From IMG/VR virus record IMGVR_UViG_2630968533_000009: 16,383 bases of DNA, one strand, 5' to 3'. Numbering within the stretch: position 1 is the stretch's first letter; each line of letters starts with the position of its first letter. Below are positions 349-15,578 of this stretch, piece after piece. Source of the stretch: a virus (taxonomy: Duplodnaviria; Heunggongvirae; Uroviricota; Caudoviricetes). The notes under the pieces are model-generated. The model was given only the letters and a program-made list of their open reading frames with translations, made no database searches and had not been told where the DNA came from. A program made the translations under genes and the position numbers.

Positions 349-569
349 TTTTCATCTCCATATATCTTGCATCCTGAATAAGACCCGATGCGTGTAAAAC
401 CACGGATATACGCTAAGCAGTTGTCATTACTGCTACTCAATACATTCAATAAACAAATAAACAATCACCAAAAATATAAACTTTTAATATTAATGAACGT
501 CATAAATTCACGAAATAAATATATTGTTTGGATTATGTTTCTTATCAACAGGAGTATCATTTTACACTA

Positions 570-589
570 TACTGTATACATATACAGTA
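570..589. promoter_or_regulatory. LexA (SOS) box, TACTGTATACATATACAGTA
   Basis: Read directly: CTGT-N8-ACAG with an AT-rich spacer, 19/20 match to the E. coli LexA consensus TACTGTATATATATACAGTA. Lies in the AT-rich region between the activator gene and the lysis operon. Confidence 0.8.
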
Positions 590-829
590 TTATTTTTACC
601 TGTAGAGTAAAAAGATCGTTTCCCTCACAGTCGCTGACTTTCTTAAACAAACTTTAAAAATCAAATAACTATCGACTATTCCTACGATCCACCATCATCT
701 TTCCCCTGCATAATGACGCGCTTATTAGCCTGGTCACCTTTTGCTCTTTAATTGCTGAGTCGATTTATTAGCGGGCTTGTTCATTTATAGAGAATCTATT
801 TTTTAAACTTATTTATTAAAGCTTTTTTC

Positions 830-838
830 ATTCTTCAC
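830..838 (+). promoter_or_regulatory. Candidate late-promoter/activator element ATTCTTCAC, copy 1, 48 nt upstream of the 886 start
   Basis: Same 9-mer, preceded by TTAAAG/TTAAAAG, recurs at 2181..2189 upstream of the tail operon. A chance match is possible (roughly 1 in 10 for regions of this size). Confidence 0.25.
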
Positions 839-885
839 TGGCGGGTTCTGACGACACTAAACGCTCACTTATCAGGAGATATCGT

Positions 886-1173
886 ATGAAAAAAGTCACT
901 TTTCCCCGGCTTTCCGGCTGGCTAGTCGCTTCCGCCGCGCTGTTTGTCGTGATCGGCTGGACCTCTTCCGCACAGATCCCGGTCGTCATTTATAAACTAA
1001 GCCTGGTTTCGCTTTCCGCGGTGCTGGGATACTGGCTCGATCGCAGTTTGTTCCCCTGGGCACGGCCTGACTCTTTTAGCCCCTGGAAGGAACCTCGTTG
1101 CTGCGCGGCGGCAATGATTCGCCGCGCCATCATCGTTGCCGCCGTCTGTCTTTCCGTCGCCTTAGGGCTATAG
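886..1173 (+). CDS. Small membrane protein, putative holin
   Basis: 95 aa with AGGAG 8 nt upstream. Three hydrophobic helix-length segments (WLVASAALFVVIGW, LSLVSLSAVLGYWL, IIVAAVCLSVALGL). Sits immediately upstream of the lysozyme gene. Confidence 0.45.
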   Translation: MKKVTFPRLSGWLVASAALFVVIGWTSSAQIPVVIYKLSLVSLSAVLGYWLDRSLFPWARPDSFSPWKEPRCCAAAMIRRAIIVAAVCLSVALGL

Positions 1174-1175
1174 TG

Positions 1176-1781
1176 ATGTGGCTGAAATATATCGCGTCTA
1201 TGATTATTTTCGTTCTTTTCCCGCTTAACGCCTCTGAACCGCCGCGAGCCTCTCTGGCATGGCGAAACGAACTAATTCGTACAGCTCGAGAAGTCTGGGG
1301 GCTGAATGCTCCAGTGGCCGACTTTGCCGGGCAATTACACCAGGAGTCCGCCTGGCAGCCAATGGTACGTTCCCCCGTTGGCGCACAAGGTATGGCGCAA
1401 TTTATGCCTGCTACAGCGACATGGATAAGCCAGTTGTATCCACAATTGCGTGAAAACAAACCGTATAACCCAACCTGGGCGATTCGCGCGCTGGTGCAAT
1501 ATGACCAGCATTTGTGGAAAAACATCTCTGCGAAAAATGATTGTCAGCGTATGGCGTTTACCCTAAGCGCCTATAACGGCGGTCAGGGGTGGGTTAACCG
1601 GGATAAAAAACTGGCTGCATCCAAAGGGTTAGATGCCACTAGCTGGTTTGGTCATGTTGAGCAAGTCAACGCCGGGCGCAGCGCCACGAACTGGCGAGAA
1701 AATCGTCGCTATCCAAAGATGATCCTCTATCAACATGCCGCCCGCTATTTACTCTGGGGACAGGCAAGCTGTCTTCATTAA
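1176..1781 (+). CDS. Lytic transglycosylase (SLT-domain) endolysin with N-terminal signal or signal-anchor segment
   Basis: Motifs QESAW (catalytic Glu-Ser), GMAQFMP and AYNGGQG match the SLT family signature. N-terminal MWLKYIASMIIFVLFPLNA is hydrophobic. Start set at ATG 1176 just after the holin stop (1171..1173) rather than the track's 1098, which would overlap the holin. Confidence 0.85.
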   Translation: MWLKYIASMIIFVLFPLNASEPPRASLAWRNELIRTAREVWGLNAPVADFAGQLHQESAWQPMVRSPVGAQGMAQFMPATATWISQLYPQLRENKPYNPTWAIRALVQYDQHLWKNISAKNDCQRMAFTLSAYNGGQGWVNRDKKLAASKGLDATSWFGHVEQVNAGRSATNWRENRRYPKMILYQHAARYLLWGQASCLH

Positions 1782-1793
1782 TCAGAGGGGCCG

Positions 1794-2108
1794 ATGAAAC
1801 TCAGTATCGATTTTTGGGAAGTGATCTCCCTTATGCTTTCCTTCGTTGGATTAATGTTTGCTGCCGGAAAACTGCTGTTAGCACAAATTGAAAAACGACT
1901 TAATGAGCGTTTTGAGTCTCTGGAAAATGCCCGCAGGGAATCAGAAACAAGTTGGTCGAAACTGGAAAGAGAATTTCTCGAATTTCGTGCCGAGCTTCCG
2001 CTGCATTATGTCCGCAGAGAAGATTATCTTCGTGGGCAAGCAGTATTAGAAGCGAAGCTGGATGCCTTATATAGCAAAATCGAGCTGTTACAACGTGGCA
2101 GTTATTGA
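1794..2108 (+). CDS. Membrane-anchored coiled-coil protein, lysis accessory (possible i-spanin-like)
   Basis: 104 aa with GAGGGG RBS. One N-terminal transmembrane segment (ISLMLSFVGLMFAAGKLLL) followed by a charged helical region. Last gene of the lysis cassette; no partner lipoprotein ORF found. Confidence 0.35.
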   Translation: MKLSIDFWEVISLMLSFVGLMFAAGKLLLAQIEKRLNERFESLENARRESETSWSKLEREFLEFRAELPLHYVRREDYLRGQAVLEAKLDALYSKIELLQRGSY

Positions 2109-2110
2109 AA

Positions 2111-2145
2111 AATCCCCACCCTTATGTAAGGGTGGGGATTTTTTT
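2111..2145 (+). terminator. Rho-independent terminator after the lysis cassette
   Basis: Perfect 14-bp stem AATCCCCACCCTTA / TAAGGGTGGGGATT with a 3-nt loop, followed by seven T residues (2139..2145), directly after the 2108 stop. Confidence 0.8.
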
Positions 2146-2180
2146 AACCATTCAATTTTTTCTCTAAATCACATTAAAAG

Positions 2181-2189
2181 ATTCTTCAC
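2181..2189 (+). promoter_or_regulatory. Candidate late-promoter/activator element ATTCTTCAC, copy 2, 64 nt upstream of the 2253 start
   Basis: Identical 9-mer to 830..838 with the same AAAG-type upstream context, located between the terminator and the first tail gene. Confidence 0.25.
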
Positions 2190-2252
2190 CTTCGCTGCTT
2201 CAGAATACATTTCAACGATAACGAAGTGAGCGGTAATTAAGGTACAGCCTAT

Positions 2253-2708
2253 ATGGAAATTTTATCTGTAATGAATTCTGTTGTGACCAGATTACGTGAA
2301 CACAACTCCGAAATGGATATATTTATTTCATCTAAGGATGCCCAGAAATATATTCCACAGACACAACGAGTTGCAGTGATTATTAATTATAGCGGTTCTG
2401 TCTTTGCTACGCCCGAAAGCAGTAATGCCATCGTGCAACAGCAAATACTCCGCTTAACCGCCACCGTTATTGTTGGCAAAAATTGTGATGCATTAAACGC
2501 ACTTGATCACATACGCAGCGCATTGGGTGGCCTTCCGCTTCCTGATTGTGATCGTCTGCTTTGGCTTGAAAAAGAAATTAATACGGGTGAGAGCGGCGGT
2601 TTCTGCCGCTACATCCTGGAAATGGCGACCAGCTCGCTGTTTATCGCTGAACAGGAAAGCACGGATCTTCCCCTGCTTACGGAAGTTAACTACGAGGAAA
2701 CTGAATGA
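2253..2708 (+). CDS. Phage tail protein, Mu gp37-like (tail completion/terminator candidate)
   Basis: 151-aa ORF, first gene of the tail operon, stop overlaps the next start (ATGA). Assignment rests mainly on position two genes upstream of the sheath, as in Mu-like tails. Confidence 0.4.
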   Translation: MEILSVMNSVVTRLREHNSEMDIFISSKDAQKYIPQTQRVAVIINYSGSVFATPESSNAIVQQQILRLTATVIVGKNCDALNALDHIRSALGGLPLPDCDRLLWLEKEINTGESGGFCRYILEMATSSLFIAEQESTDLPLLTEVNYEETE

Positions 2709-2902
2709 AATACATCTACAACGGCCCAGCAAGCGGCGTCACCCTTGCCGATGGACAAGAAATCTTATTGTGGCCGAACAGTGAAATTGATCTGCCAGAA
2801 GACAACGAGTGGGTCATGACCATGATTGCCCGCAATCATCTGACTCCTGTCATCACTCAGGAAGAACAAAATAACGTAGAGGAAATTGTACATGGCAGCT
2901 AA
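2705..2902 (+). CDS. Small tail-associated protein preceding the sheath (DUF2635-like)
   Basis: 65-aa ORF translationally coupled on both sides. A small conserved gene in this position is typical of Mu-like tail clusters. Confidence 0.4.
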   Translation: MKYIYNGPASGVTLADGQEILLWPNSEIDLPEDNEWVMTMIARNHLTPVITQEEQNNVEEIVHGS

Positions 2903-4316
2903 TTATCTGCACGGTGTAGAAACTATTGAAATTGAAACCGGCCCGCGTCCGGTTAAAGCGGTAAAATCCGCCGTCATCGCTTTAATCGGTACATCCCCCT
3001 GCGGTCCGGTAAATAAACCAACATTATGCCTTTCTGAAAGCGATGCTGCGCAGTTTGGCTCGACTCAGGCTAACTTTACGATCCCACAGGCACTGAAGGC
3101 AATTTATGACCACGGTGCCGGTACGGTGGTGGTGATTAACGTGCTGGATCCGGCAAAACATGGCTCCAACATCAGCAATGAGAGTATCACTTTTGATGCT
3201 AACAACCAGGCGAAGCTCGCTCACCGCAATGTGCGTAACGTGGTACTAAAGCCCTCTTCATCAAATTCATCAACCTTTAACACCGCAGCATTTAGCGTAG
3301 ATGAACAAACAGGCATAATTACCCGTAAAGGAGCCGACATTCCTCCTGGTGCGAAAGTTTGTGCCTATTATTCCTGGTGCGACCCTACAAAGGTCACCGC
3401 AGCCGATATTATCGGTACCGTAAATACCGCAGGCGACCGCACGGGGATGAAACTCCTTCAGGACACCTATAACCTGTACGGTTTCTACGCCAAAATCCTG
3501 CTTGCTCCTGTGTTTTGTACGCAAAAATCGGTGACTACTGAGCTGATTGCACAAGCGGAAAAACTCGGTGCGATTACCTACATTGATGCCCCGATTGGGA
3601 CAACATTCCAGCAGGTATTGGCTGGACGCGGTTCGCAAGGGGCTATCAACTTCAATACCAGCTCTGATCGTGCGCGTTTATGTTACCCACATGTCAAAGT
3701 TTACGATGGCATCACTAACCAGGAAATTCTTGAGCCTCTCTCTTCGCGTGCTGCCGGGCTGCGTGCCAAAGTAGACCTCGAAAAAGGTTTCTGGTGGAGC
3801 AACTCAAACCAGGAAATTCAGGGTATTACCGGTATTGAACGTTCGCTTTCCGCAATGATTGATGATCCACAAAGCGAAGTGAATCAGCTCAACGAAAACG
3901 GCATTACCACTATTTTCAATAGTTACGGCTCTGGTCTGCGCTTGTGGGGTAACCGCACAGCGGCATGGCCTACCGTGACCCATATGCGTAACTTTGAAAA
4001 CGTCCGCCGGACAGGCGATGTAATCAATGAGTCAATCCGTTATTTCAGTCAGCAGTATATTGATATGCCGATTAATCAGGCACTTATTGACGCGCTGACC
4101 GAATCGGTAAATACCTGGGGCCGAAAACTGATTGCCGACGGCGCACTGCTTGGCTTTGAGTGCTGGTACGATCCGGCACGAAATTCACCGGCTGAACTCA
4201 GCGCCGGGCATTTATTGCTGAGCTATAAATTCACCCCGCCACCGCCGCTGGAACGTCTGACGTTTGAAACTGAAATTACTTCTGAATATTTAGTCTCTCT
4301 GGAGAGCAATAGCTAA
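2892..4316 (+). CDS. Contractile tail sheath protein
   Basis: About 474 aa. N-terminus MAANYLHGVETIEIETGPRP resembles the P2 FI / Mu L sheath N-terminus. ATG 2892 with GAGGAA RBS preferred over the track's TTG at 2886. Confidence 0.9.
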   Translation: MAANYLHGVETIEIETGPRPVKAVKSAVIALIGTSPCGPVNKPTLCLSESDAAQFGSTQANFTIPQALKAIYDHGAGTVVVINVLDPAKHGSNISNESITFDANNQAKLAHRNVRNVVLKPSSSNSSTFNTAAFSVDEQTGIITRKGADIPPGAKVCAYYSWCDPTKVTAADIIGTVNTAGDRTGMKLLQDTYNLYGFYAKILLAPVFCTQKSVTTELIAQAEKLGAITYIDAPIGTTFQQVLAGRGSQGAINFNTSSDRARLCYPHVKVYDGITNQEILEPLSSRAAGLRAKVDLEKGFWWSNSNQEIQGITGIERSLSAMIDDPQSEVNQLNENGITTIFNSYGSGLRLWGNRTAAWPTVTHMRNFENVRRTGDVINESIRYFSQQYIDMPINQALIDALTESVNTWGRKLIADGALLGFECWYDPARNSPAELSAGHLLLSYKFTPPPPLERLTFETEITSEYLVSLESNS

Positions 4317-4840
4317 TGGCTGGAAAAATTCAAATTAACCGTATTACCAACGCCAATATTTATCTCGATGGTAATAACCTTTTAGGTCGTGCAACAGAAA
4401 TTAAATTGCCGGATGTAAGTTTAATTATGCAGGAGCATAAAGCACTGGGCATGGTGGGTAAAATCGAACTCCCGGCAGGTTTCGATAAACTGGAGGGCGA
4501 AATTAAATGGAACTCCTTCTATCAGGACGTAATGCGTAAAACGGCAAACCCGTGGCAGGCGGTTGCATTACAGTGCCGCTCCAGTATTGATTGCTATAAC
4601 TCCCAGGGGAAAGCGAATCAATTAGCGCTAGTGACACATTTAACCGTGATGTTTAAAAAGAATCCACTGGGCACATTTAAACAGAATGAAAACCCGGAAT
4701 TCAGCAGCGCCTTTGGTTGCACTTATATTAAACAAGTAGTTGATGGTGAAACGCTGCTTGAACTTGATTATATGGCCAATATTTTCCGGGTTAATGGTGT
4801 GGATCAATTAAGTACCTATCGCAATAACATCGGTGGCTAA
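4316..4840 (+). CDS. Tail tube protein
   Basis: 174-aa ORF immediately after the sheath, start overlapping the sheath stop (TAATG). Size and position match P2 FII / Mu M-type tube proteins. Confidence 0.8.
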   Translation: MAGKIQINRITNANIYLDGNNLLGRATEIKLPDVSLIMQEHKALGMVGKIELPAGFDKLEGEIKWNSFYQDVMRKTANPWQAVALQCRSSIDCYNSQGKANQLALVTHLTVMFKKNPLGTFKQNENPEFSSAFGCTYIKQVVDGETLLELDYMANIFRVNGVDQLSTYRNNIGG

Positions 4841-4844
4841 GTTA

Positions 4845-4864
4845 TTCGGGGCTACGGCCCCGAA
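4845..4864 (+). other. RNA hairpin after the tube gene (8-bp GC-rich stem, 4-nt loop)
   Basis: TTCGGGGC-tacg-GCCCCGAA is a perfect inverted repeat 5 nt after the tube stop, with no long T tract. Likely an mRNA-stabilising or partial-termination element. Confidence 0.5.
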
Positions 4865-4890
4865 CTTTGCAAAATAAATAAGGACACAAA

Positions 4891-5208
4891 ATGAAAGAAC
4901 ATTATATCTTGCAGTTTCCATTTACGTCGGCAGCAGGAAATAATATCGACACGCTGCAATTACGTCGCCTGAAAGTAAAAGATATGCGCAACGCCCGCCG
5001 GATCAGCGAAAAGCCAGAAGAGTGGGATGAACCGCTGATGGCGGCGATGACCGGACTGGTGCCAGAAGATTTAGCCGAAATGGATTTGCTGGATTACCAG
5101 GCATTGCAGAAACGATTTCAATCCATGCTTACCGTGGTTACAGAATCCTCCCCTGCTATGGCAGGCAATGGCGCTACTGGCGAGATGGTTTCGCTTTCCG
5201 CCCAGTGA
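4891..5208 (+). CDS. Tail assembly chaperone (gpE/gpG-like)
   Basis: 105-aa acidic ORF between tube and tape measure, the conserved chaperone position. AAGGA RBS. Confidence 0.5.
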   Translation: MKEHYILQFPFTSAAGNNIDTLQLRRLKVKDMRNARRISEKPEEWDEPLMAAMTGLVPEDLAEMDLLDYQALQKRFQSMLTVVTESSPAMAGNGATGEMVSLSAQ

Positions 5209-5282
5209 GATAGACGCCCTTACCGTCGATGACTTTAGCAACTGGCTGGATGAAGCCAGCGCCCAAATAAAAATCGAATATG

Positions 5283-5307
5283 ACTCGCAGACCTGATGTC
5301 TGCGAGT
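5283..5307 (+). other. Hairpin in the chaperone-tape measure spacer (10-bp stem, 5-nt loop)
   Basis: ACTCGCAGAC-ctgat-GTCTGCGAGT is a perfect inverted repeat. It covers the stop of the +1-frame extension of the chaperone. Confidence 0.5.
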
Positions 5308-5397
5308 TTCCCAAGCCCGTCAGGTTTATTTCTTCCCTGCCCCTTTTTTTAGAAAAATAACCAGCGGGCCATTATCAATATTTAAAGAGAAACAATT

Positions 5398-7773
5398 TTG
5401 GCCAACGATATTATTACCCAGCTTCAGGCGCGTAATGAGACGTTGACGCAGGCAATAGCCCGTTACGGCTCACTCAACGCCAGAACATTGTTAACTCTCT
5501 CTACTCAGCAGGCGACAGTTATCAAACTAACGCAGCAGCTTGCCGATTCCGCTCTCCGCCTGGAGGAAAATAGCCGCAGCCGCGCTAATCTGATGGAGAA
5601 AACCCAAACATTTGCCGGGCAATTTAGCAAAGTATTCAATGTTGAAGCCCCCGACTGGAAGTTGCCGTATGAGTTTCAGGACAACATGGTCAATATGGCG
5701 ACCAAAGGTGGGATGAATGCTACAACCCGCGAGACGCTCAGCCTTAATCTGCGCGACTGGAGCATGGATTTTAACCAGCAGCAGACCACCTTACAGAACG
5801 CAGCCCAAACGCTGATCGAAGGCAATTTGTCGTCGATGCAGGATCTCAACCGTTATATGCCGGAGATCGCCAAAGCTGCCACCGCCACGCGCGAAAGTGC
5901 TGAAACGTGGGCGAATGCCGCGCTCGCGACTCATGATCGACTGAATATTGCCCCGGAAAATTTCCACGCCGCGCAAAACATGATGTACGGCATTAGCAAA
6001 AGCGGTGGGCCTGCCATTGCTGAACAAACGCAGTGGATAGAGAAATTTGCAGGTAAAACCGGCGCTCAGGGTCTGGAAGGTATGGCTGAACTGACTGCCG
6101 CCATGCAGATCGCAATGAAAAATGGGGCCAGCGCCAGTGCGGCGGCGGAGAATTTTGACCACTTTCTGCAAACCACCTTTTCGAAAAAAACCGATAGCTG
6201 GTTCGCCAGCCAGGGCGTCGATCTGCAAGGCTCTCTGCTTGAACATCAGCAAAACGGTATGGGTGTTAGCGAAGCCATGACTCATATCGTACAAATGCAG
6301 CTTGAGAAGATGAACCCGGCGATCCTCGACACCTTCAAACGTACTATGCAGATTGAAGATTTATCTGCTCGCAGCAATGCGCTGCAATCGATGGTGTCGC
6401 AATTTAATCTGGGCGAAATGTTCGGCGATGTGCAAACGGTGGAATTCCTGGCACCTATGCTGGCGAATATGGAGGAATATCGCCAGTTAAAAGCCTCTGC
6501 CATGCAAGCCACCAGCAAGAATCTGATTAACGCTGACTTTTCTGCGCAAATGGCCTCGCCCATTGAACAGACTAAAGCGTTACAGCTGGCATTAAATGAT
6601 TTATGGCTCAGCATTGGTTTGCAGCTTATGCCGGCGATTGGCGAGCTGGCACAAAGCCTTACGACGGTTATTCGCCAGTTCAGCGCCTGGCTACGCGAAC
6701 ATCCGGCGCTGGTGCAAAACATTGCGAAAATCGTCGGGGCGGTTTGGCTGTTTAACGGCGCGCTGAATGTTTTAAAGCTGGGCGCGAACCTCATCACCTC
6801 GCCGTTTATTCGTCTGGTCGATATCTTCCTGAAAGTCAAGGCAAGTCTGGCGCTCACAGGCGGGGCAAGTAAGATGCTATCAGCGGTTAAGTCATTGGGT
6901 GGCGGCGCAAAATGGCTAATGCAACTGCTTGGTCGTGGCCTGATTGGCGCACTGAAACAGGTAGGTCAGACCGTCTTCTGGTTGGGTAGGGTTTTATTGA
7001 TGAATCCCATTGGTCTGGTCATCACTGCGATTGCGGGCGCTGCTTATCTGATTTGTCGCAACTGGGAGCCTATCTCCAGGTTCTTTTCGACCATCTGGCA
7101 ACGTATCACCACGGCCTTTGACGGCGGCATTGCAGGAATTTGTCGGTTGATTCTCGACTGGTCACCGCTGGAGTTGTTCTATAGCGCCTTTTCCAGTGTG
7201 ATGAATTGGTTTGGTGTCGAGATGCCTGCAAGTTTTAGCGAGTTCGGCAGCAATCTTCTGGGCAGTCTGGTTGACGGCATAATGAATGCCTTCCCCGCTC
7301 TGAAAGGCATTATTGATCAGGTAAAAAACGCCATCCCAGACTGGCTAAAAACCACGATGGGTATTAGTACAGAAGGATCGGCTACAGCTATTACAAGCAC
7401 GACTAATACCGCATCCGTCTCCCCCGCGACCGTTGTTCCAGGCGTTGCCGGTGCGATTTTAACACCGCCGGTGGGCAAACAACTCGCGCCATCCGGCAAA
7501 ACGGCTACGCCGTCATCGGCGCCAGCGGCAAAAAATACAGCCGCCAAACCCGTATCTGCCTCTTTACCTGGTAAATCCGTAACCAAACCGGCGACGCTAC
7601 CCTCCCGTTCCTCAGGAAAAGTCCAGGTAAATTTTTCGCCACAAATTACCGTGCAGGGTAACGGACAAAACACCACTAAAGAGATTCAGAACGTGTTGAC
7701 GATGAGTAAACGCGAACTGGAAAGAATGATTAACGATGTAATGGCGCAGCAGCAGCGCCGGGGGTATGCCTGA
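5398..7773 (+). CDS. Tail tape measure protein
   Basis: 791 aa: helical N-terminal region, long central hydrophobic/Gly-rich section, Ser/Thr/Pro/Ala-rich C-terminal segment. Start appears to be TTG at 5398 (no in-frame ATG before an upstream TAA), so the start is less certain than the call. Confidence 0.85.
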   Translation: MANDIITQLQARNETLTQAIARYGSLNARTLLTLSTQQATVIKLTQQLADSALRLEENSRSRANLMEKTQTFAGQFSKVFNVEAPDWKLPYEFQDNMVNMATKGGMNATTRETLSLNLRDWSMDFNQQQTTLQNAAQTLIEGNLSSMQDLNRYMPEIAKAATATRESAETWANAALATHDRLNIAPENFHAAQNMMYGISKSGGPAIAEQTQWIEKFAGKTGAQGLEGMAELTAAMQIAMKNGASASAAAENFDHFLQTTFSKKTDSWFASQGVDLQGSLLEHQQNGMGVSEAMTHIVQMQLEKMNPAILDTFKRTMQIEDLSARSNALQSMVSQFNLGEMFGDVQTVEFLAPMLANMEEYRQLKASAMQATSKNLINADFSAQMASPIEQTKALQLALNDLWLSIGLQLMPAIGELAQSLTTVIRQFSAWLREHPALVQNIAKIVGAVWLFNGALNVLKLGANLITSPFIRLVDIFLKVKASLALTGGASKMLSAVKSLGGGAKWLMQLLGRGLIGALKQVGQTVFWLGRVLLMNPIGLVITAIAGAAYLICRNWEPISRFFSTIWQRITTAFDGGIAGICRLILDWSPLELFYSAFSSVMNWFGVEMPASFSEFGSNLLGSLVDGIMNAFPALKGIIDQVKNAIPDWLKTTMGISTEGSATAITSTTNTASVSPATVVPGVAGAILTPPVGKQLAPSGKTATPSSAPAAKNTAAKPVSASLPGKSVTKPATLPSRSSGKVQVNFSPQITVQGNGQNTTKEIQNVLTMSKRELERMINDVMAQQQRRGYA

Positions 7774-8726
7774 TGTATGCCGTTTTAGGAGAGATTGAAT
7801 TTAAGGTTGTCACATTCTGGGACGGCTTTAAAAGCACAATGGGCGTGGATTACGCCACACATGCCCGTATAGAAGGCAAACCCGGCGTGCAGTTTATTGG
7901 CGATAAGCTGGATATGCTGGCGCTGGAATTTTCCCTGCACAGCCAGTTTTGCCAGCCCACAACAGAGCTGAACCGACTGCGTGAAGCCATGCTTGCTCAC
8001 AAGGCGATGGCACTGGTATTTGGCAATGGCGATTATCGCGGCTGGTTTGTGATTACGGAGCTAACCGCCACCCACCAGCACACCGATCCCTGGGGCAATG
8101 TGATTGCCCAAAACGGAACGATGTCGCTCCAGGAGTACACCGGCGATCCTAAAAATCCACTTTTACCTCCGGCGATTACCACCCAGGAGCCCAACATCGA
8201 GGAAAAGGCGAGCGATTTTCCCGACAAGGTGGAGTCCTGGTTTGATCAGATATTAAACGCCATCGAAGAAGGTATGCGTAAGGCCAAAGAGATGCTGGAT
8301 GAACTGACACAAGCCATTGAAGATATTAAAAAAACGGTGGCAAAAGTGAAAGCAATGATTAAAGAGGCCAAAGCGTTAAAAGAAAAGTGTGAAAAGATAA
8401 TTACGTCATTGAAAAAGACAATCGACGCCATCGAAACCCTGTTTAAACAGCCAATGGATCTGCAAACGCTGGCAGGACTCCCAAAAGCGTTGTCGGCGCA
8501 GATTAAAACTTTACTGGGTAACATGCCAGGTATCCGGGACTGCGCCAATGACGCCAGTACACTGGTTGACCATGCTCAGGCGCTTTTCGACGACATTACC
8601 AGCGACATCGCCGAAGCGACGTTTGATAAAGCCGCAACGTTGGTTGATCAGGCACGAACAACGGTACAACAAACCACTCCCACAGTGAGCCAGCTTGCTG
8701 CCGCGACCATTACGAGGATCTGGTGA
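7773..8726 (+). CDS. gpU-like tail protein with a long C-terminal coiled-coil extension
   Basis: N-terminal ~130 aa (MYAVLGEIEFKV ... DY ... FIG ... LALEF ... GWFVITE) follows the pattern I recall for P2 gpU. The C-terminal ~185 aa are Lys/Glu/Ala-rich and heptad-like. Start overlaps the tape measure stop (ATGA). Confidence 0.6.
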   Translation: MYAVLGEIEFKVVTFWDGFKSTMGVDYATHARIEGKPGVQFIGDKLDMLALEFSLHSQFCQPTTELNRLREAMLAHKAMALVFGNGDYRGWFVITELTATHQHTDPWGNVIAQNGTMSLQEYTGDPKNPLLPPAITTQEPNIEEKASDFPDKVESWFDQILNAIEEGMRKAKEMLDELTQAIEDIKKTVAKVKAMIKEAKALKEKCEKIITSLKKTIDAIETLFKQPMDLQTLAGLPKALSAQIKTLLGNMPGIRDCANDASTLVDHAQALFDDITSDIAEATFDKAATLVDQARTTVQQTTPTVSQLAAATITRIW

Positions 8727-8935
8727 TGCGATACCTTGAACATATCACCACCGACGGCGAACGCTGGGATAATCTGGCATGGCATTACTACGGTGATGCG
8801 CTGGCTTATGAACGCATAATCGCCGCCAATCCACATGTAGCCATTTACCCGGTACTGCCTTCCGGTATTCAGCTCATTATTCCGGTCATTTCCGTCAATA
8901 AAACCTTATCGGAGATCCCACCATGGCTGAGATAA
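8726..8935 (+). CDS. Tail protein X (gpX-like)
   Basis: About 70 aa with GD/ER-WD ... YYGD ... ANP ... LPSG pattern resembling P2 gpX. ATG 8726 overlaps the upstream TGA; GTG 8723 is an alternative start. Confidence 0.7.
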   Translation: MRYLEHITTDGERWDNLAWHYYGDALAYERIIAANPHVAIYPVLPSGIQLIIPVISVNKTLSEIPPWLR

Positions 8936-9963
8936 GCGTAACTGGTGGCGTCTTTGCCACACTCACGCCCATTTTTACCCTCTGGTATGGGCATAAAGAT
9001 ATCACTTATGACATCACACCCTATGTCACCAGCATCAGTTACCACGACAGCATCAAAAACGAGTCGGATACCATCGCAATTACACTGGATGACACAGATG
9101 GACGCTGGATAAAAGAGTGGTATCCCGGCAAAGGCGATACGCTGGCGCTGCATATGGGTTATCAGGGAGAGAAGCTGCTCGATTGTGGTCAGTATATTAT
9201 TGATAAAATTGATATTTCAGCGCCACCTTCTACGGTAAATATTGATGGCATCGCCACTTCCGTCAATCAGGCGCTGCGCACCCGTAACAGCCAGGGTTTT
9301 GAAGAAACGACGCTTTCGGCTATCGCCAGCCGTATCGCACAAACTCACGGCCTAAAGCTGGTGGGCAAAATCGAGCCTCTGACAATTGACCGGGTGACAC
9401 AGTACGGCGAAACCGATGTTGGATTTCTCAAACGTCTGGCCAGTGAATATGGTTATGCCGTAAAAGTGACGACGAAAGAGCTGATTTTTTCACATTTACC
9501 CACGCTGCGCTGCCTGGCACCTGTGAAAAAGATCGACCGCAAAGACGTTTCGCATTTCACCTTCAAAGATACCATTAACCGTATCTACAAAAACGCCACC
9601 GTACAGCATCAAAATAGTAAGAAAAAAGAACTGGTTATCTACACTCACAACAGCCAGCAAAAACCGTCTGCCCGTGGAGTCGGCACCAGTGCCGACACGC
9701 TAAAACTGAACAGTCGGGCGACGGACGTTGGCGCAGCACAGGCAAAAGCCAACGCTGCACTCGACAGCCACAACGAATATCAGCAAACCGGAACGCTCAC
9801 AATGATGGGCTGCCCGGAACTGACGGCGGGCAATAAAATCGAGCTAACCGATTTTGGCGTGCTTTCCGGTCAATGGCTAATTGATAAATCGACTCACAGT
9901 TTTGTGCGCAGCGGCTATACCACTGAAATCGACGTGTCGCGCGGGCCAGCGACCAGCCAGTAA
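8923..9963 (+). CDS. gpD-like tail/baseplate hub protein
   Basis: 346 aa with DDTDG, TTLSAIASRIAQTHGLKL and ETDVGFLKRLA motifs matching the P2 gpD / Mu P family as I recall it. Confidence 0.85.
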   Translation: MAEISVTGGVFATLTPIFTLWYGHKDITYDITPYVTSISYHDSIKNESDTIAITLDDTDGRWIKEWYPGKGDTLALHMGYQGEKLLDCGQYIIDKIDISAPPSTVNIDGIATSVNQALRTRNSQGFEETTLSAIASRIAQTHGLKLVGKIEPLTIDRVTQYGETDVGFLKRLASEYGYAVKVTTKELIFSHLPTLRCLAPVKKIDRKDVSHFTFKDTINRIYKNATVQHQNSKKKELVIYTHNSQQKPSARGVGTSADTLKLNSRATDVGAAQAKANAALDSHNEYQQTGTLTMMGCPELTAGNKIELTDFGVLSGQWLIDKSTHSFVRSGYTTEIDVSRGPATSQ

Positions 9964-9972
9964 GGAGGAAAT

Positions 9973-10674
9973 ATGAAAGGAGTAACCCGTCAAACGGGGA
10001 TTATCAGCGATATTGACGAAACCAGCGTTCGGGTGCGGGTCACGCTCCCGGAGTGTGACAATCTGAAGAGCAACTGGCTTGCGGTACTTCAACGCAATTC
10101 CCAGGACAATAAAGACTACTGGCTACCGGATATGGGCGAGCAAGTGGAAGTTCTGCTGGACAATAACGGTGAAGATGGCGTGGTGCTGGGCGCAGTTTAT
10201 TCTACGGTTGACACCGCGCCTGTAGCCTCGCGCGACAAACGTTACGTCCAGTTTTCTGATGGCGCAGCGTTTGAATATGACCGCAGCACGCACCAGCTGA
10301 CGATCAACGGCGGTATCGAGAAAATCGTGATTGAGGTTATCAACGGTACCTGCCTGACATCGCCCAACGTTGAGATTAAAGCCCAACAGGTCACCGTGAC
10401 TTCCGATACCGTCGATGTTAAAGCGACCGATGTCAGCATCGACGCCACTAAGGTCGAGGTTAAAGCAGCAGCAGTGACGGTAGATGCGCCCATGAGCACC
10501 TTTACTGGCAACGTCACGGTAATGAAAAAACTCACCTGGCTTGGCGGGATGGCAGGAAGTGGAGGCATCGGTAACGCAGCCACGATAACCGGCAATGTCA
10601 ACGTGATCGGCAACGTTCAGGCCAGCGGCGCATTGCAGGACAGCGGTGGCAACTCCAACCACCATTCACACTGA
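9973..10674 (+). CDS. Baseplate central spike (gpV-like)
   Basis: 233 aa with a strong RBS (AAGGAGG). N-terminal domain followed by a Val/Thr/Ala-rich beta-helix-like repeat region and a His-rich C-terminus (NHHSH). Confidence 0.8.
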   Translation: MKGVTRQTGIISDIDETSVRVRVTLPECDNLKSNWLAVLQRNSQDNKDYWLPDMGEQVEVLLDNNGEDGVVLGAVYSTVDTAPVASRDKRYVQFSDGAAFEYDRSTHQLTINGGIEKIVIEVINGTCLTSPNVEIKAQQVTVTSDTVDVKATDVSIDATKVEVKAAAVTVDAPMSTFTGNVTVMKKLTWLGGMAGSGGIGNAATITGNVNVIGNVQASGALQDSGGNSNHHSH

Positions 10675-10679
10675 CGTTT

Positions 10680-10708
10680 AACCCGCCTGATGGCGGGTTT
10701 TCTCTTTT
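10680..10708 (+). terminator. Terminator-like hairpin between gpV and gpW genes
   Basis: AACCCGCC-tgat-GGCGGGTT (8-bp stem) followed by T-rich TTCTCTTTTT, inside the 98-nt gap between the two genes. Confidence 0.5.
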
Positions 10709-10772
10709 TAATCAATCAGTTTTCTAAATCGCTTTAATATCTCCACAGCCCGTTCAGGGCGAAAATACCCTC

Positions 10773-11132
10773 ATGAACACAAAAACACGCCCCTCAACGC
10801 TGCACTGGCAACCGGCCTTGCTGCGGCCTGAAGAATACGTCTGCGGACTGGATGATATTCACCAGGCAATACACATCATTCTGCGTACACCGCGCGGCAG
10901 TGATCCCCACAGACCGCTGTTTGGCAGCAACTTGTGGCACTACATCGATTACCCCATCGAGCGGGCTATCCCGCATGTGGTACGGGAGTCGGTGGAAGCC
11001 ATCCGCCAGTGGGAACCGCGCTGTCGGTTGCTGAAGGTGACACCAGTAATCGACGGCGAACATCTGACGTTACGTGTGCAATGGCGCGCCGCTGACGGCG
11101 TTATCAACTCAACGGAGGTGTTATGGCGATAG
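10773..11132 (+). CDS. Baseplate wedge protein (gpW/gp25-like)
   Basis: 119 aa with IHIILRTPRGS ... FGSNL ... WEPR pattern matching the gpW/gp25 family. Confidence 0.8.
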   Translation: MNTKTRPSTLHWQPALLRPEEYVCGLDDIHQAIHIILRTPRGSDPHRPLFGSNLWHYIDYPIERAIPHVVRESVEAIRQWEPRCRLLKVTPVIDGEHLTLRVQWRAADGVINSTEVLWR

Positions 11133-12100
11133 CCGAACCCAATTTTATTGACCGCGATCCTGCGCAAATTACCAGTGAGATGATTGCGCAATACGAAGAT
11201 GCCAGTGGTAAAAAACTCTATCCGGCACAGGCTGAGCGGTTGCTCATCGACCTGTTTGCCTATCGTGAAAACCTTGTACGCATCGCCATTCAGGAAGCGG
11301 CGAAACAAAACCTGGTCGCGTATTCCCGCGCGCCAATGCTGGATTATTTAGGAGAGCTGGTGGGCGTTCACCGTTTGCCTGCGCAGCCAGCAAAAACGAC
11401 GTTGCAGTTTTCGGTCGTCAGTGCGTATACCAGCAATATCCTGATTCCCCAGGGGACGCGGGCCAGTGCCTCTGATAGCGTGATGTTCGCCACCGATGAA
11501 GATGTTCTGCTTCCGGCCTGGAGTTTGCATATCGCCGTTCCTGCCACCAGCCTCGCAGCAGGTGAACAGGGTAACGGCTGGCAGCCTGCACAAATTAGCG
11601 CTCTGGTCGACAGGATTGGTCATTATGACATCAACGTAACCAACCTGACTGCGTCAACGGGCGGCTGCGGTGAAGAGAGCGATGACGCATTGCGCCAGCG
11701 TATCCAACTGGCACCAGAAAGCTTTAGTAATGCGGGCAGCTATGGCGCATACCGCTTTCATACGCTTTCTGTTAGCCAGTCGATTATTGACGTTGCAGTA
11801 CTGGGGCCGGACGAGGGATTGCCAGAAGGCTGCGTGGAGATCTACCCGCTAACGCTGTTTACCACCGCCGATCAGGAGACAACGCTGGCTGCGGCGCGTA
11901 AAGCGATTAGCCTCTGGACGCAACAGCGGCAGAAACATCTGGGGCAAGACATTGTGCCAAACCAGATAATCAAAGTGTTACAGGTCGATGGCGTCTATGA
12001 CGTTGCGCTGAACTTGCCTACAAAACGTATTTTGCAGGCGCATGAATGGGCGGAATGCACTGCAATAGACGTCACGATCGCCGGAGTTAGCGATGGATAA
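11123..12100 (+). CDS. Baseplate J-like protein
   Basis: 325 aa immediately after the gpW-like gene with overlapping start. Size and order match P2 gpJ / Mu baseplate J. Confidence 0.85.
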   Translation: MAIAEPNFIDRDPAQITSEMIAQYEDASGKKLYPAQAERLLIDLFAYRENLVRIAIQEAAKQNLVAYSRAPMLDYLGELVGVHRLPAQPAKTTLQFSVVSAYTSNILIPQGTRASASDSVMFATDEDVLLPAWSLHIAVPATSLAAGEQGNGWQPAQISALVDRIGHYDINVTNLTASTGGCGEESDDALRQRIQLAPESFSNAGSYGAYRFHTLSVSQSIIDVAVLGPDEGLPEGCVEIYPLTLFTTADQETTLAAARKAISLWTQQRQKHLGQDIVPNQIIKVLQVDGVYDVALNLPTKRILQAHEWAECTAIDVTIAGVSDG

Positions 12101-12809
12101 ATTGCTACCACCGCCGCCGCTTGCCAGCGATGAGCGTTTTTCGATTCTGGCAAATATCGCCGCCGAGCGTTTTGCCCAACTCGATCTGACGGCGTTGATG
12201 GTTTATCTGGTCGACCTGGTTGATGCTTCGGCATTACCAGCCCTTGCAGAACAATTTCACGTTCAGGGGTTGGAAGGTTGGTTATTTACCACCGATGAGC
12301 GGGAGAAACGCGAGTTAATTAAACAAGCCATTGAACTGCATAAATATAAAGGAACAATTTGGGCGGTGCGGCGGGTGCTGGAAATACTCTCCTTACCCGG
12401 AACTATTTCAGAATGGTTTGAATATGGGGGAAGGGCTTACTTTTTTAAGGTTGATATTACACTAGAGGAAAAAGGATTAAATGAAGATGAATTCAATGCA
12501 CTTATCACATTAATTCATGAATATAAAAATGTCCGTTCAAAGCTGGAAAGCATTGTTATTTGGCTTATTAATCGAAGCCCAATACCAGTTATTGGCAGTG
12601 CCATGCAAGGAGGGGAAGTCATTACAGTATTGCCTCCTGTTGCAGAAAGCCTCAGCCAGTCATCTGGAATATTTTTAGCGACAGGTTATTGTGTGGAGGA
12701 ATATATTCAACTACTACCTTATCAACCCGATCGACTAACACAATCCCAACCGATGAAGGTCGGCACAGGATACTGGAGCACCGAAATTATGTCTGTATAT
12801 CCGGAGTAA
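12093..12809 (+). CDS. gpI-like baseplate protein with extended low-GC C-terminal region
   Basis: N-terminus [16 protein letters not shown] is typical of the P2 gpI family. At 238 aa it is longer than P2 gpI, and the C-terminal part (about 12420..12720) is visibly AT-rich. Confidence 0.7.
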
Positions 12810-12812
12810 TAA

Positions 12813-14422
12813 TGGCAAGTGAATTTTTTACAATATTAACTGCTGCAGGCAAAGCCAAAATTGCCTCAGCACTGGCCGAGCAAAAACAGATCCGTCTGCA
12901 AACTATGGTAGTTGGCGACGGTAATGGTAAATATATCGAACCGACAGAAAGTCAGACCAAAGTAGTCCATGAGGTCTGGCGTGGTCAGCTCAATACATTA
13001 AAAATTGCGCCAGATAATCCGGCCTGGGTTATCGCAGAAGCGATTATTCCCGAACAAGTCGGAGGCTGGTATGTACGCGAAGTTGGGTTACTGGATACCG
13101 ACGGCACGATGGTCGCTATTGGTAAATTCCCGGAAACCTATAAGCCACGATTACCTGCGGGGGCCAGTAAGCAAATCGTTATACGCGCGGTCATGGAAGT
13201 CACCAATGCAGATGCGGTGACGCTTTTGATCGACCCTTCAGTCGTTGTGGCAACCAGGGAATATGTCGATGACGCGTTGAAAACACATCAGCAATCACGA
13301 AATCATCCTGATGCGACGCTGACACAAAAAGGTTTTACGCAGCTGAGTAATGCGACTAATAGCGATGATGAAACCAAAGCGGCCACGCCAAAAGCGGTAA
13401 AAACGGCATATGACCTGGCAAATAGCAAAGCTGCCACCAGTCATAATCATGCCTGGAATCAGATTACTGGTATCCCTGATGGTACACTGACGCAGAAAGG
13501 AGTCGTTAAGCTTAACAATACAACAAATAGCACCAGTACGACGGAAGCTGCAACACCAAGTGCGGTTAAGGCAGCGATGGATAAGGCTATTGCTGCGGCA
13601 CCGTCCAGCCATACCCATGCCTGGGGGCAAATAACAGGTATCCCCGACGGTACGCTGACGCAAAAAGGGGTCGTGAAACTTAATAATGCGACCAACAGCA
13701 CCAGTACGACGGAAGCTGCAACGCCGAACGCTGTTAAGGCAGCGATGGATAAGGCTATTGCTGCGGAAAGCTGTCCTGTTGGGATGCCTATTCCCTGGCC
13801 ATCTGATTCTGTACCTTCAGGCTACGCTCTGATGACAGGTCAGACATTTAATAAAACCTCCTATCCCAAACTGGCAATTGCATATCCATCTGGTGTTATT
13901 CCTGATATGCGCGGATGGATAATTAAAGGAAAACCATCCAGTGGGCGCGCTATATTATCTACTGAACTGGATGGAGTTAAATCACATAACCATACGGGCA
14001 GTATTTCGAGTACGGACTTAGGGACGAAATCTGTATCATCAATAGATCTAGGAACAAAGAACACTCAGTCATTTAATCATGGGATAAAAACAACAAATAC
14101 AGCAGGCGCGCATAGCCATGATAGTGGTTCTGGCGAAAGTAGTGAGGGGGGAAAACCTCGGTATGGTACTCGTGATAACACAACAAATAATTTTGGTTCT
14201 GGTGAATCAGATCATGACAATTACAAATTTAACACATCCACGGATGGAGAGCATGCACATTCAGTTAATGTTGGCTCACACTCTCACTCTGTTATTTTAG
14301 GGTCACATAATCATTCAATTGCCCTTGGTTCCCATAATCACTCCCTAACCATTAATAATACCGGCAACACCGAAAACACCGTCAAAAATATCGCATTCAA
14401 CTATATTGTGAGGCTAGCATGA
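12813..14422 (+). CDS. Tail fiber protein
   Basis: Conserved Mu S / P2 H-type N-terminal domain, three internal fiber repeats, collar-like segment ([11 protein letters not shown] ... [12 protein letters not shown]) and HxH-rich tip. Start set at ATG 12813 after the gpI stop; the track's 12689 start is an upstream in-frame extension. Confidence 0.85.
13306..13766 (+). repeat. Tandem tail-fiber repeats (about 56 aa / 168 nt period, three copies)
   Basis: Copies 2 and 3 (13469..13598 and 13637..13766) are near-identical in nucleotide sequence, differing mostly at synonymous positions. Copy 1 (from about 13306) is more diverged. Protein motif TLTQKG-x-LNNxTNS ... EAATP-x-AVK-x-A-x-D. Confidence 0.7.
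14264..14344 (+). repeat. Three tandem 27-nt repeats encoding x-x-x-G-S-H-x-H-S
   Basis: GTTAATGTTGGCTCACACTCTCACTCT / GTTATTTTAGGGTCACATAATCATTCA / ATTGCCCTTGGTTCCCATAATCACTCC, in frame within the fiber C-terminus. Confidence 0.7.
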
Positions 14423-15126
14423 ATACTTTTACCTTTTCCGATGAAGCTCAAATACTAACTGTATATAATTTTTCACAAGACTCCCAAGAATATATCGGTG
14501 AGTCTGATGCATACATTGCACCTAATACAGGCTTGCCAAATTATTGCACATTAATTTCACCTCCCGAAAAGGTTCCTGGTTTTACTCCAGTGTGGGAGAA
14601 TGAAACATGGAGACTTATTGAAGATCATCGAGGCCAAACTGTTTATAACAAAGTTGATGGTAGCCAGCTTATTATTCAAGAATTGGGCCAATTACCTGAA
14701 AATGTAACAGTCATTTCCCCGACAGGTTCTTTTGAACGTTGGGATGGTGAAAAATGGCAACCATCTATAACCGATGCTAAAGAGGCGAAATACTCTGCAA
14801 TCAAAAATCAACGCGATGCCATCACAACCGATTACATCATCATCAACAACCATCACTTCCACAGTGATACAAATAGCCGTATCCAACAGCTTTCACTCAC
14901 AAAAATGGGAGCGGAGAAAAAAATTCCGCCAGGTTTAATGTGGAAAACTAAAAATAATGGTCTGATTGAGTTAACCAACGAAATCGCTGCCCAGTTTGAA
15001 TCGGTCACCATGGATCACGATATGCGCTTGTTCGCAAACGCCCAGCGTCATATCGCGGCGGTGGAAGCACTGGACGATATTCAGGCGGTGCTCGACTACG
15101 ATTATTCAACAGGCTGGCAACCATGA
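14419..15126 (+). CDS. Tail fiber assembly chaperone (Tfa-like)
   Basis: 235-aa ORF directly after the fiber with ATGA start/stop overlap. AT-rich N-terminal two-thirds and a normal-GC C-terminal about 45 aa ending [10 protein letters not shown]. Confidence 0.6.
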
Positions 15127-15578
15127 GTAAAACCACTGTCTGGCTCGCTTGTTATAAGGGCCGAACAGAGCACCGTGGTATTGCCCGACTGGCTGACTGG
15201 CTTACCCGTAAAATCACACGCGGTCATTATTCCCACTGTGAATTAGCCGTTAAGCATGGTGAAAAGAGATACCTTTGTTACTCTGCATCACTGCGCGATC
15301 GCGGTGTACGCGGAAAGATAATGCCATTGCCAGCGGATAAGTGGGATATGCTGCCGCTCCAGGCTAGCCTTCAGGATGTGGAAACTTTTTTCCGTAAACA
15401 TGATGGCAAAAAATATGACTGGCGCGGAGCATTAGGAATTATTACCGGTAATAAAGAACAGCGCGATCGCCTGTTTTGCAGTGAATTTTGTGCTGAATTT
15501 CTGCAACTGAAGGAAAGCTGGCGCTATTCTCCAAACCACTTGTACGCTTTAGTCAGCAGCTGGCAATACCAGCAATAA
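15123..15578 (+). CDS. Hypothetical protein, possible LRAT / permuted NlpC-P60-like thiol hydrolase (accessory gene)
   Basis: 151-aa ORF translationally coupled to the fiber assembly gene (ATGA). Motifs YSHCELAV ... KHG and LFCSEFCAEF resemble the His ... His ... Cys order of that fold, from memory only. No signal peptide. Confidence 0.3.
   Translation: MSKTTVWLACYKGRTEHRGIARLADWLTRKITRGHYSHCELAVKHGEKRYLCYSASLRDRGVRGKIMPLPADKWDMLPLQASLQDVETFFRKHDGKKYDWRGALGIITGNKEQRDRLFCSEFCAEFLQLKESWRYSPNHLYALVSSWQYQQ

Follow-up and report, generated by a model that had tools for sequence, protein, structure and literature searches.

The window, by which we mean the whole stretch of 16,383 nucleotides that was analyzed, is, as known here from its genes, a chromosomal tail-only element of the Mu type, a tailocin-like cluster of E. 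coli. Its bases 1-2700 matched 196 of 5,426 complete E. coli genomes at 90 to 100% identity, always on the chromosome, and in strain CFSAN061771 the RefSeq annotation places the island between lysC and yjbD. According to RefSeq and Pfam, the island encodes a Mor-family regulator, a holin, an SLT transglycosylase, a small membrane protein, and a complete contractile-tail set (Gp37, sheath, tube, tape measure, baseplate, and fiber). Within the window, Pfam matched the sheath, the tube, Gp37, the holin (Holin_2-3, 1e-26), and the transglycosylase (SLT, 9e-15). The RefSeq annotation has no capsid, packaging, replication, or integrase genes across the whole lysC-yjbD island, which points to a tail-only, tailocin-like element, and the gene set is that of an R-type (contractile) tailocin, namely, tail and lysis genes without genes for a phage head, replication, or integration. 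The same element occupies the same place in Salmonella (STM4219-STM4195) and also in Dryocola, Phytobacter, Superficieibacter, and Enterobacter hormaechei. A literature search returned no study on the regulation of this locus and no experimental report on it, and an Rfam search of positions 300-2300 gave subthreshold matches to a terminator hairpin only.

In the window, the baseplate J gene (11123-12100) carries an in-frame deletion of 138 bp (46 amino acids) relative to E. coli CFSAN061771. The junction lies near 11848-11857, where the two BLAST pieces overlap by 10 bp, which suggests a deletion between short direct repeats. The baseplate J orthologues of Salmonella (locus L070) and of loci L071 to L075 are longer (367 to 374 amino acids), and the tail may be defective in the window's strain, given the deletion. 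In another E. coli genome (NZ_OW967966.1, 4692023-4696046), the first 2.7 kb of the locus carry an insertion of an ISL3-like ISKox3 transposase. Contig L069 (Logan ERR11042163) has kept the Mor gene and the holin/SLT/membrane-protein cassette, and RlaP and RtcB genes replace the tail genes; this gene content marks the contig as either a remnant with lysis genes only or a locus that has been rearranged.

The activator matched the Pfam Mor family (PF08765) with an E value of 7e-38 over residues 10-112, and BLASTP found significant identity over the C-terminal half of the protein, 27% to Mu Mor and 34% to Mu C. RefSeq labels it a Mor family protein, and an NCBIfam search returned no named family for it. 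A Mor/C-family activator is thus encoded within the element itself, and its gene was kept at this locus in all seven genera examined. A perfect LexA (SOS) box lies between mor, which is divergently oriented, and the holin gene (Table 1). Together with the adjacent CATTTTACAC, it was intact in six of eight distinct loci (seven genera plus contig L069): it was kept in E. coli, Salmonella, Dryocola, Phytobacter, and Superficieibacter and was degenerate in L069 and in E. hormaechei. The degenerate box of E. hormaechei (L064) reads CATTTTATAATAAACACT.

The conserved block at 559-566 can be read in two ways. On the minus strand, if the block is indeed read in that direction, TAAAAT would serve well as the -10 element of mor, and the LexA box would then span -35 to -20. 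Alternatively, a promoter scan found TTTACA (561-566) as the -35 element of a rightward promoter, TTTACA-16-TACAGT, on the plus strand. The perfect and conserved CTGT-N8-ACAG box of this candidate LexA regulon member overlaps both the candidate mor promoter and the candidate rightward promoter, and one box may serve divergent promoters, leftward for mor and rightward toward the lysis genes. Conserved in several genera are also a block, AAAAAGATCGnTT..CCTCAC (607-626), between the LexA box and the holin promoter and a perfect inverted repeat, TTAAA-caaac-TTTAA (643-657 or 642-657), neither of which fits the geometry of a Mor promoter. The dyad at 642-657 was considered as a fourth Mor-type promoter and rejected, as there is no -10 at N22 on either strand.

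Table 1. Features of the lysis and tail gene cluster, with their positions in the window
Feature	Position	Strand	Basis or remark
Mor/C-family transcription activator gene, 115 aa	1..348	-	Pfam Mor PF08765, RefSeq
Candidate mor -10, conserved ATTTTA (TAAAAT on the minus strand)	559..564	-	Block CATTTTACAC conserved in 6/8 loci
LexA (SOS) box CTGTATACATATACAG, TA flanking each side	572..587	.	Read from the letters; perfect
A/T-rich block 5' of holin operator, UP-element-like, candidate alpha-CTD site	798..814	+	Conservation
Holin promoter operator candidate, ATTAA-agcttt-TTTCA (5-N6-5)	815..830	+	Conservation, geometry
9-mer ATTCTTCAC, copy 1	830..838	+	Overlaps last base of right arm and -35 slot of holin promoter
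Holin promoter -10 hexamer, GACACT	853..858	+	Conservation
Lysis operon	886..2108	+	Holin 886-1173, SLT transglycosylase 1176-1781, membrane protein 1794-2108; Pfam, RefSeq
Intrinsic terminator past lysis operon	2107..2146	+	17-bp stem, -26.9 kcal/mol, z = -6.0, U run
Tail promoter operator candidate, TCTAA-atcaca-TTAAA (5-N6-5)	2163..2178	+	Conservation, pattern search
9-mer ATTCTTCAC, copy 2	2181..2189	+	In nonconserved spacer of tail promoter
Tail promoter -10 hexamer, CAGAAT	2201..2206	+	Conservation, partly chosen by geometry
Intrinsic terminator past baseplate gene V	10680..10709	+	8-bp GC-rich stem, -15.3 kcal/mol, z = -4.8, U-rich tail
Third operator candidate (baseplate/fiber operon), TCTAA-atcgct-TTAAT	10723..10738	+	Pattern search, conservation
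Third promoter -10 hexamer, GAAAAT	10761..10766	+	Geometry, conservation

We aligned four E. coli alleles with seven other loci from six other genera and scored the identity to E. coli at each position. The layout conserved at the holin and tail promoters was a 16-bp 5-N6-5 element followed by 22 bp and then a -10 hexamer, without a -35 element. At the holin promoter, the consensus across loci was ATTAA-N6-TTyCr, with an identity of 0.97 in the left arm and 0.80 in the right arm and with a variable middle of the spacer; the -10 scored 0.76, and the rest of the N22 stretch scored 0.27. The A/T-rich block 5' of this dyad (mean identity of 0.81 across the seven other loci) would be a UP-like site by analogy to the proximal UP subsite of Mu Pm, which lies at -57 to -52 (PMC4390567). 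At the tail promoter, the consensus was yyTAA-N6-TTAAA, with identities across the six other genera of 0.87 and 0.97 in the arms and 0.53 in the 6-bp spacer, and YYTAA-N6-TTAAA matches the window exactly at the tail operator and nowhere else. In E. hormaechei, the two promoters have an identical left (distal) arm, ACTAA, which falls in this register in both.

The -10 hexamer at the holin promoters of the eight loci was GATACT, CATACT, or GACACT, in which positions -11 (A), -9 (A), and -7 (T) never varied, and the tail promoters had CAGAAT, CAAAAT, AAAAAT, GATAAT, or AATAAT, with A at -11 and T at -7 invariant. Conserved nAnA(A/C)T hexamers thus provide a recognizable -10 with no usable -35: a consensus scan found no sigma-70-type -35/-10 pair at these two promoters or at a third one described below, which agrees with the initial annotation, where no convincing -35 had been seen at the first two. 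The -35 slots read TTCTTC (site 1, holin), AGATTC (site 2, tail), and ATCTCC (site 3). With positions relative to +1 reckoned from the -10 hexamers, each 16-bp dyad lies near -43.5, about 22 bp before the -10, fully so at sites 2 and 3 and with a weak proximal arm at site 1. There, the proximal arm is poor (TTTCA compared with TTAAw), so the symmetry of the holin dyad is weak.

Other assignments of these elements were also considered. An alternative pairing, TTTAA-N9-TTAAA, is present near the holin operator at 802-820. TTAAA (816-820) was rejected as the proximal arm of site 1, because the dyad would lie 10 bp too far from the -10 and its distal arm, AAACT, would be mismatched. TTCACT/TTCACC was rejected as a -35, since the spacer to any -10 would be merely 10 to 13 bp. 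At the tail promoter, a conserved AATAC (2204-2208) overlaps the -10, and taking AATACA as the -10 would bring both copies of the 9-mer discussed below into register. AATAC (2204-2208 and 10764-10768) was rejected as a -10 core because it would leave no conserved T at -7 and does not hold in L071 to L075; the hexamer 22 bp past the dyad (CAGAAT, GAAAAT, or GATACT) is consistent in every locus.

The third site, which the initial annotation had overlooked, lies in the intergenic stretch that separates baseplate gene V from gpW. It was kept with identical spacing in six further loci: Salmonella, three metagenomic or read-assembly contigs (L071, L072, and L074), Xenorhabdus ehlersii (L073), and a Mu-like prophage of Pectobacterium polaris (L075). 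The common form is nnTAA-N6-TTAAT, N22, GA(A/T)A(A/C)T, N6, ATG. The -10 was GAAAAT or GATACT in all seven loci, and in each of them the ATG of gpW (10773 in the window) came exactly 6 nt past it. No Shine-Dalgarno sequence precedes gpW in the window, L070, or L071 to L075; together with the position of the ATG, this leads us to predict that the gpW mRNA is conserved as a leaderless transcript. The -10 of site 3 is bracketed by an inverted repeat (e.g., GGGGGC...GCCCCC), which shows compensatory changes between loci. In Salmonella (AFYI01000007.1; L070, 4086-6921), genes for a GtrA-like protein, a group 2 glycosyltransferase, and a membrane protein (STM4206-4204) are inserted between baseplate V and the gpW promoter, and the promoter module is intact.

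A composite of the three sites, TAA-N6-TT-N25-nAnAMT, occurs only at these three places on both strands of the 16.4 kb, each time on the coding strand and 5' of an operon. Its expected number was 0.39, and three occurrences were reached in 2 of 200 shuffles, figures that do not amount to an independent test because the pattern was derived post hoc. Strong intrinsic terminators stand before sites 2 and 3 (Table 1), so each of the operons that follow needs its own promoter. Three promoters, with terminators before the second and the third, indicate three transcription units.

The same layout is known from phage Mu. The Mu Mor site consists of two 5-bp inverted repeats with a G/C-rich hexanucleotide spacer; this 16-bp element spans -51 to -36, is centered at -43.5, and takes the place of the missing -35, and the alpha-CTD contacts A/T-rich DNA just 5' of it (PMC4390567, PMC4287176). 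The Mu late promoters have an equivalent element, to which Mu C binds, and the bases immediately 3' of the dyad are also required, both at Pm and at the Mu late promoters (PMC2582627). Taken from the Mu genome and numbered by the mutant table of PMC4390567, Pm reads AGTAA-agccgg-TTAAT, N22, TATCCT. The three sites of the window align with it base for base (16-bp 5-N6-5 dyad, N22, and -10), and the half-sites nnTAA and TTAAT of Pm recur, as in TCTAA-atcgct-TTAAT at site 3. Both systems have a small activator of the Mor/C family and a recognizable -10 without a -35, with A/T-rich DNA just 5' of the dyad, and the operator lies directly past a terminator at Pm as it does at sites 2 and 3. In contrast to Mu, however, both the lysis and the tail operons appear to be under the direct control of one activator, which shares only 27 to 34% identity with Mor and with C, and no middle step seems to intervene. 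The gene of this activator is preceded by a LexA box and is not part of a transposable phage's early operon. The holin operator also differs in its divergent proximal arm, and the operators of the window are candidates recognized from sequence.

More distant relatives carried similar elements. In relatives from the Hydrogenophilales and Gallionellaceae, a canonical dyad, TTTAA-agcggt-TTAAA, comes directly past mor and before a homologous holin gene; in two beta-proteobacterial relatives, it is followed by N22, TAGCAT or TAGTAT, and then the holin homologue. In a locus of Haemophilus quentini, such a dyad stands before a Mor/C-family paralogue, an arrangement like that of Pm and C in Mu (coordinates of the distant dyads: L040, 4357-4400; L042, 4345-4388; L058, 3780-3823). 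Across 53 distant Mor-homologue loci, the strict dyad-plus-10 pattern was found 6 times against 3.0 expected, a weak enrichment (P = 0.085), and four of the six matches lay immediately 3' of mor or immediately 5' of a gene for a holin or a Mor/C paralogue.

Next, we looked into the element that had been singled out in the initial annotation, a 9-mer, ATTCTTCAC, upstream of both the lysis and the tail operons, which was proposed there as the target of a Mor/C-like activator with the caveat that the match could be a coincidence. Both copies are exact, and they are the only exact ones on the plus strand of the window. Their distances were as described, 48 nt before the holin start (ATG at 886; 886 - 838 = 48) and 64 nt before the first tail gene (Gp37 ATG at 2253; 2253 - 2189 = 64). 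As that caveat allowed, the match does not exceed chance. In dinucleotide-preserving shuffles, a word of at least 9 nt common to both intergenic regions (537 and 144 nt) arose in 42% of cases (P = 0.42) and one common to the final 100 nt before each start codon arose in 9% (P = 0.09). With one mismatch allowed, ATTCTTCAC was found 6 times in the window against 3.7 expected, showing no enrichment. The AAAG motif that was said to lie just upstream does precede both copies, but its spacing differs, being 8 nt at site 1 (818-821) and 0 nt at site 2 (2177-2180). This motif, mentioned there only in passing, belongs to the conserved element (ATTAAAG, ATTAAAAG).

The alignment allowed us to follow the 9-mer in homologous loci, a check that the initial annotation had suggested. 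All four E. coli alleles kept both copies, which is uninformative because these sequences are too similar (95.7 to 100% identity). Across the six other genera, the mean identity to E. coli of the 9-mer slot at the tail promoter was 0.39, compared with 0.35 for the remaining spacer. The slot reads ACGCCTGAT in Salmonella, ATATTTACC in Dryocola, CATTCACCG in Phytobacter, AATTCACTT and AATCCCCGG in two species of Superficieibacter, and AAATCTAAT in E. hormaechei, and just past the dyad AGA (2179-2181) alone is conserved. At the holin promoter, positions 831-836 were moderately conserved (about 0.76) and positions 837-838 were not (0.07), the conserved portion being the 5' part, rTTCTTC. No other genus of the alignment has a comparable word common to both promoters at the 9-mer position. 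E. hormaechei (L064) has a 10-mer, TTTTACTAAA, common to both its promoters. The 9-mer is absent from the third promoter, where ATCTCCACA occupies the slot.

The register of the two copies differs as well. Copy 1 starts with the proximal arm's final base (830) and copy 2 starts 3 bp past the arm (2181), leaving 14 and 11 nt, respectively, to the -10 in the operator register; the copies are 3 bp out of phase with the dyad and the -10, and their positions are therefore not equivalent. Both fall in the region of the -35 slot and spacer, where Mu Pm has a nonoptimal -35, and outside the stretch bound by Mor/C proteins (-51 to -36; PMC4287176, PMC4390567). The orthologues thus do not keep the same word at both promoters in equivalent positions: it is not conserved at the tail promoter, and its 5' TTCTTC alone is kept at the holin promoter. 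The identity of the two 9-mers is probably an E. coli-specific coincidence between a moderately constrained T/C-rich tract of the holin promoter and an unconstrained spacer of the tail promoter, as the alignment suggests.

Given the moderate conservation of positions 831-836, part of the 9-mer may matter at the holin promoter. By analogy to the Mu promoters, where bases just 3' of the dyad matter, the TTCTTC tract may have a minor functional role there. A broader version, which we consider unlikely, is that TTCTTC is a secondary promoter-proximal determinant, tuning contacts of sigma region 4 or of the proximal activator subunit or the distortion of the spacer, and that E. coli gained the tract at the tail promoter independently. 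The contrast between 0.76 at these positions and 0.27 in the remaining spacer would fit such a role, as would the requirement for the bases directly 3' of the dyad at Mu Pm and the Mu late promoters (PMC2582627) and a cryo-EM model in which sigma70 R4 and the activator lie side by side there (bioRxiv 10.1101/2025.05.02.651988). However, the tract of the tail promoter is 3 bp further from the dyad, where AGA alone is conserved, the slot at site 3 reads ATCTCC, and similar tracts at both promoters occur in no other genus of the alignment. It is rather improbable, in our judgment, that TTCTTC(AC) is a genuine second determinant of Mor-type promoters, convergently installed in the lysis and tail promoters of E. 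coli; were it so, the identity of the 9-mers would be functional though lineage specific, co-tuning promoter strength or timing.

We give similarly little credence to late promoters that work without an activator. The A/T-rich blocks would then be UP elements or sites for H-NS, IHF, or Fis, and transcription would read through from the LexA-controlled rightward promoter (TTTACA at 561-566 and TACAGT at 583-588). A conserved -35-like TTTACA, situated to the left of the LexA box, would suit such a promoter, the blocks are very A/T rich, and the conserved dyad at 643-657 misfits the Mor geometry. Yet strong intrinsic terminators stand before sites 2 and 3, and the Mor gene is retained at the locus in every one of the seven genera. 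Moreover, conserved arms with a variable spacer and a fixed N22 to the -10 make up a Mor-specific layout, which recurs at site 3 in seven loci. Finally, recognition of ATTCTTCAC itself by the Mor-like activator at both late promoters is highly improbable: although the match is exact at both promoters and found nowhere else on the plus strand, both copies precede a hexamer rAyACw (GACACT and AATACA) by 14 nt, and the holin promoter shows moderate conservation of rTTCTTC, the match is compatible with chance (P = 0.09 to 0.42), it is conserved at the tail promoter in none of the six other genera and missing from the third promoter, its two copies differ by 3 bp in their placement relative to the conserved dyad and the -10, and it is an asymmetric 9-bp word at about -35 to -27, whereas Mor and C bind dyads at -51 to -36 (PMC4287176, PMC2582627).

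The reading that we consider likely is one in which a LexA box, a Mor-type activator, and dyads serving as operators at three late promoters form one circuit, and the 9-mer is not the recognition element. DNA damage would relieve LexA repression of mor. The activator would most likely bind the 16-bp imperfect dyads, nnTAA-N6-TTAAw, whose promoter-proximal arm is reduced to the weaker TTyCr at the holin promoter. With its end 22 bp 5' of the -10 and its center at about -43.5, each dyad would replace the missing -35, as Mor does at Pm and C does at the Mu late promoters. RNA polymerase would be recruited by the activator, which would contact both the alpha-CTD and sigma region 4 in the manner of the activation complexes of Mu Mor and Mu C (bioRxiv 10.1101/2025.05.02.651988). 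Three units would then be transcribed, comprising the lysis genes (886-2108), gp37 to baseplate V (2253-10674), and gpW through the fiber genes (10773-15578); the third is predicted to start at the AUG of gpW and thus to be leaderless. From this layout we infer that the activator binds, that the late promoters depend on it, where transcription starts, and that LexA controls mor. The weaker proximal arm of the holin operator could, speculatively, delay lysis relative to tail synthesis.

Comparative sequence evidence supports the general idea of the initial annotation, namely, that a Mor homologue under SOS control activates the late promoters. Of the cascade that it had outlined, from LexA to an activator to the late promoters, the PF08765 activator, the LexA box, and the -35-less promoters with a conserved -10 stand, and the proposed target does not. 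Conservation of the LexA box and of the adjacent promoter block makes this cascade plausible, with LexA control toward mor as its putative direction.

Two tailocin control systems invite comparison. RdgB resembles Mu Mor. In Pectobacterium carotovorum, RecA-RdgA-RdgB governs lysis as well as pectin lyase and carotovoricin (Liu, Chatterjee and Chatterjee 1994, PMID 7715460), and carotovoricin is described as a Mu-type tailocin (PMC13566846). The circuit proposed here would likewise be a two-step DNA damage cascade, in which an SOS-sensitive repressor step frees a small activator that turns on tailocin and lysis genes. In contrast to that system, host LexA would act directly on the activator gene without a dedicated RdgA-type repressor, and the activator gene belongs to the tail cluster; the likeness drawn here is one of circuit logic. 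In Pseudomonas, the R and F pyocins are under PrtR-PrtN control through P-box promoters: DNA damage lifts the repression of the activator gene, and the activator binds repeated boxes 5' of the lysis and tail cluster. The logic is the same, but PrtN is not known to belong to the Mor/C family, the repressor is PrtR and not LexA, and the P box is unrelated in sequence and geometry. The regulation of Pseudomonas R-tailocins is treated in PMC12066065.

These results indicate that an exact word common to two A/T-rich promoters is weak evidence; it was the orthologous loci that revealed the neighboring dyad as the constrained element. The operator model predicts that a leaderless gpW transcript is conserved across Mu-type tails, and it specifies the exact sites to mutate. 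If the model is true, the tail cluster of E. coli and Salmonella (STM4195-4219) would be a compact and predictable SOS circuit, leading from LexA through one Mor-type activator to three promoters, and the cluster would be easy to induce, silence, and reengineer.
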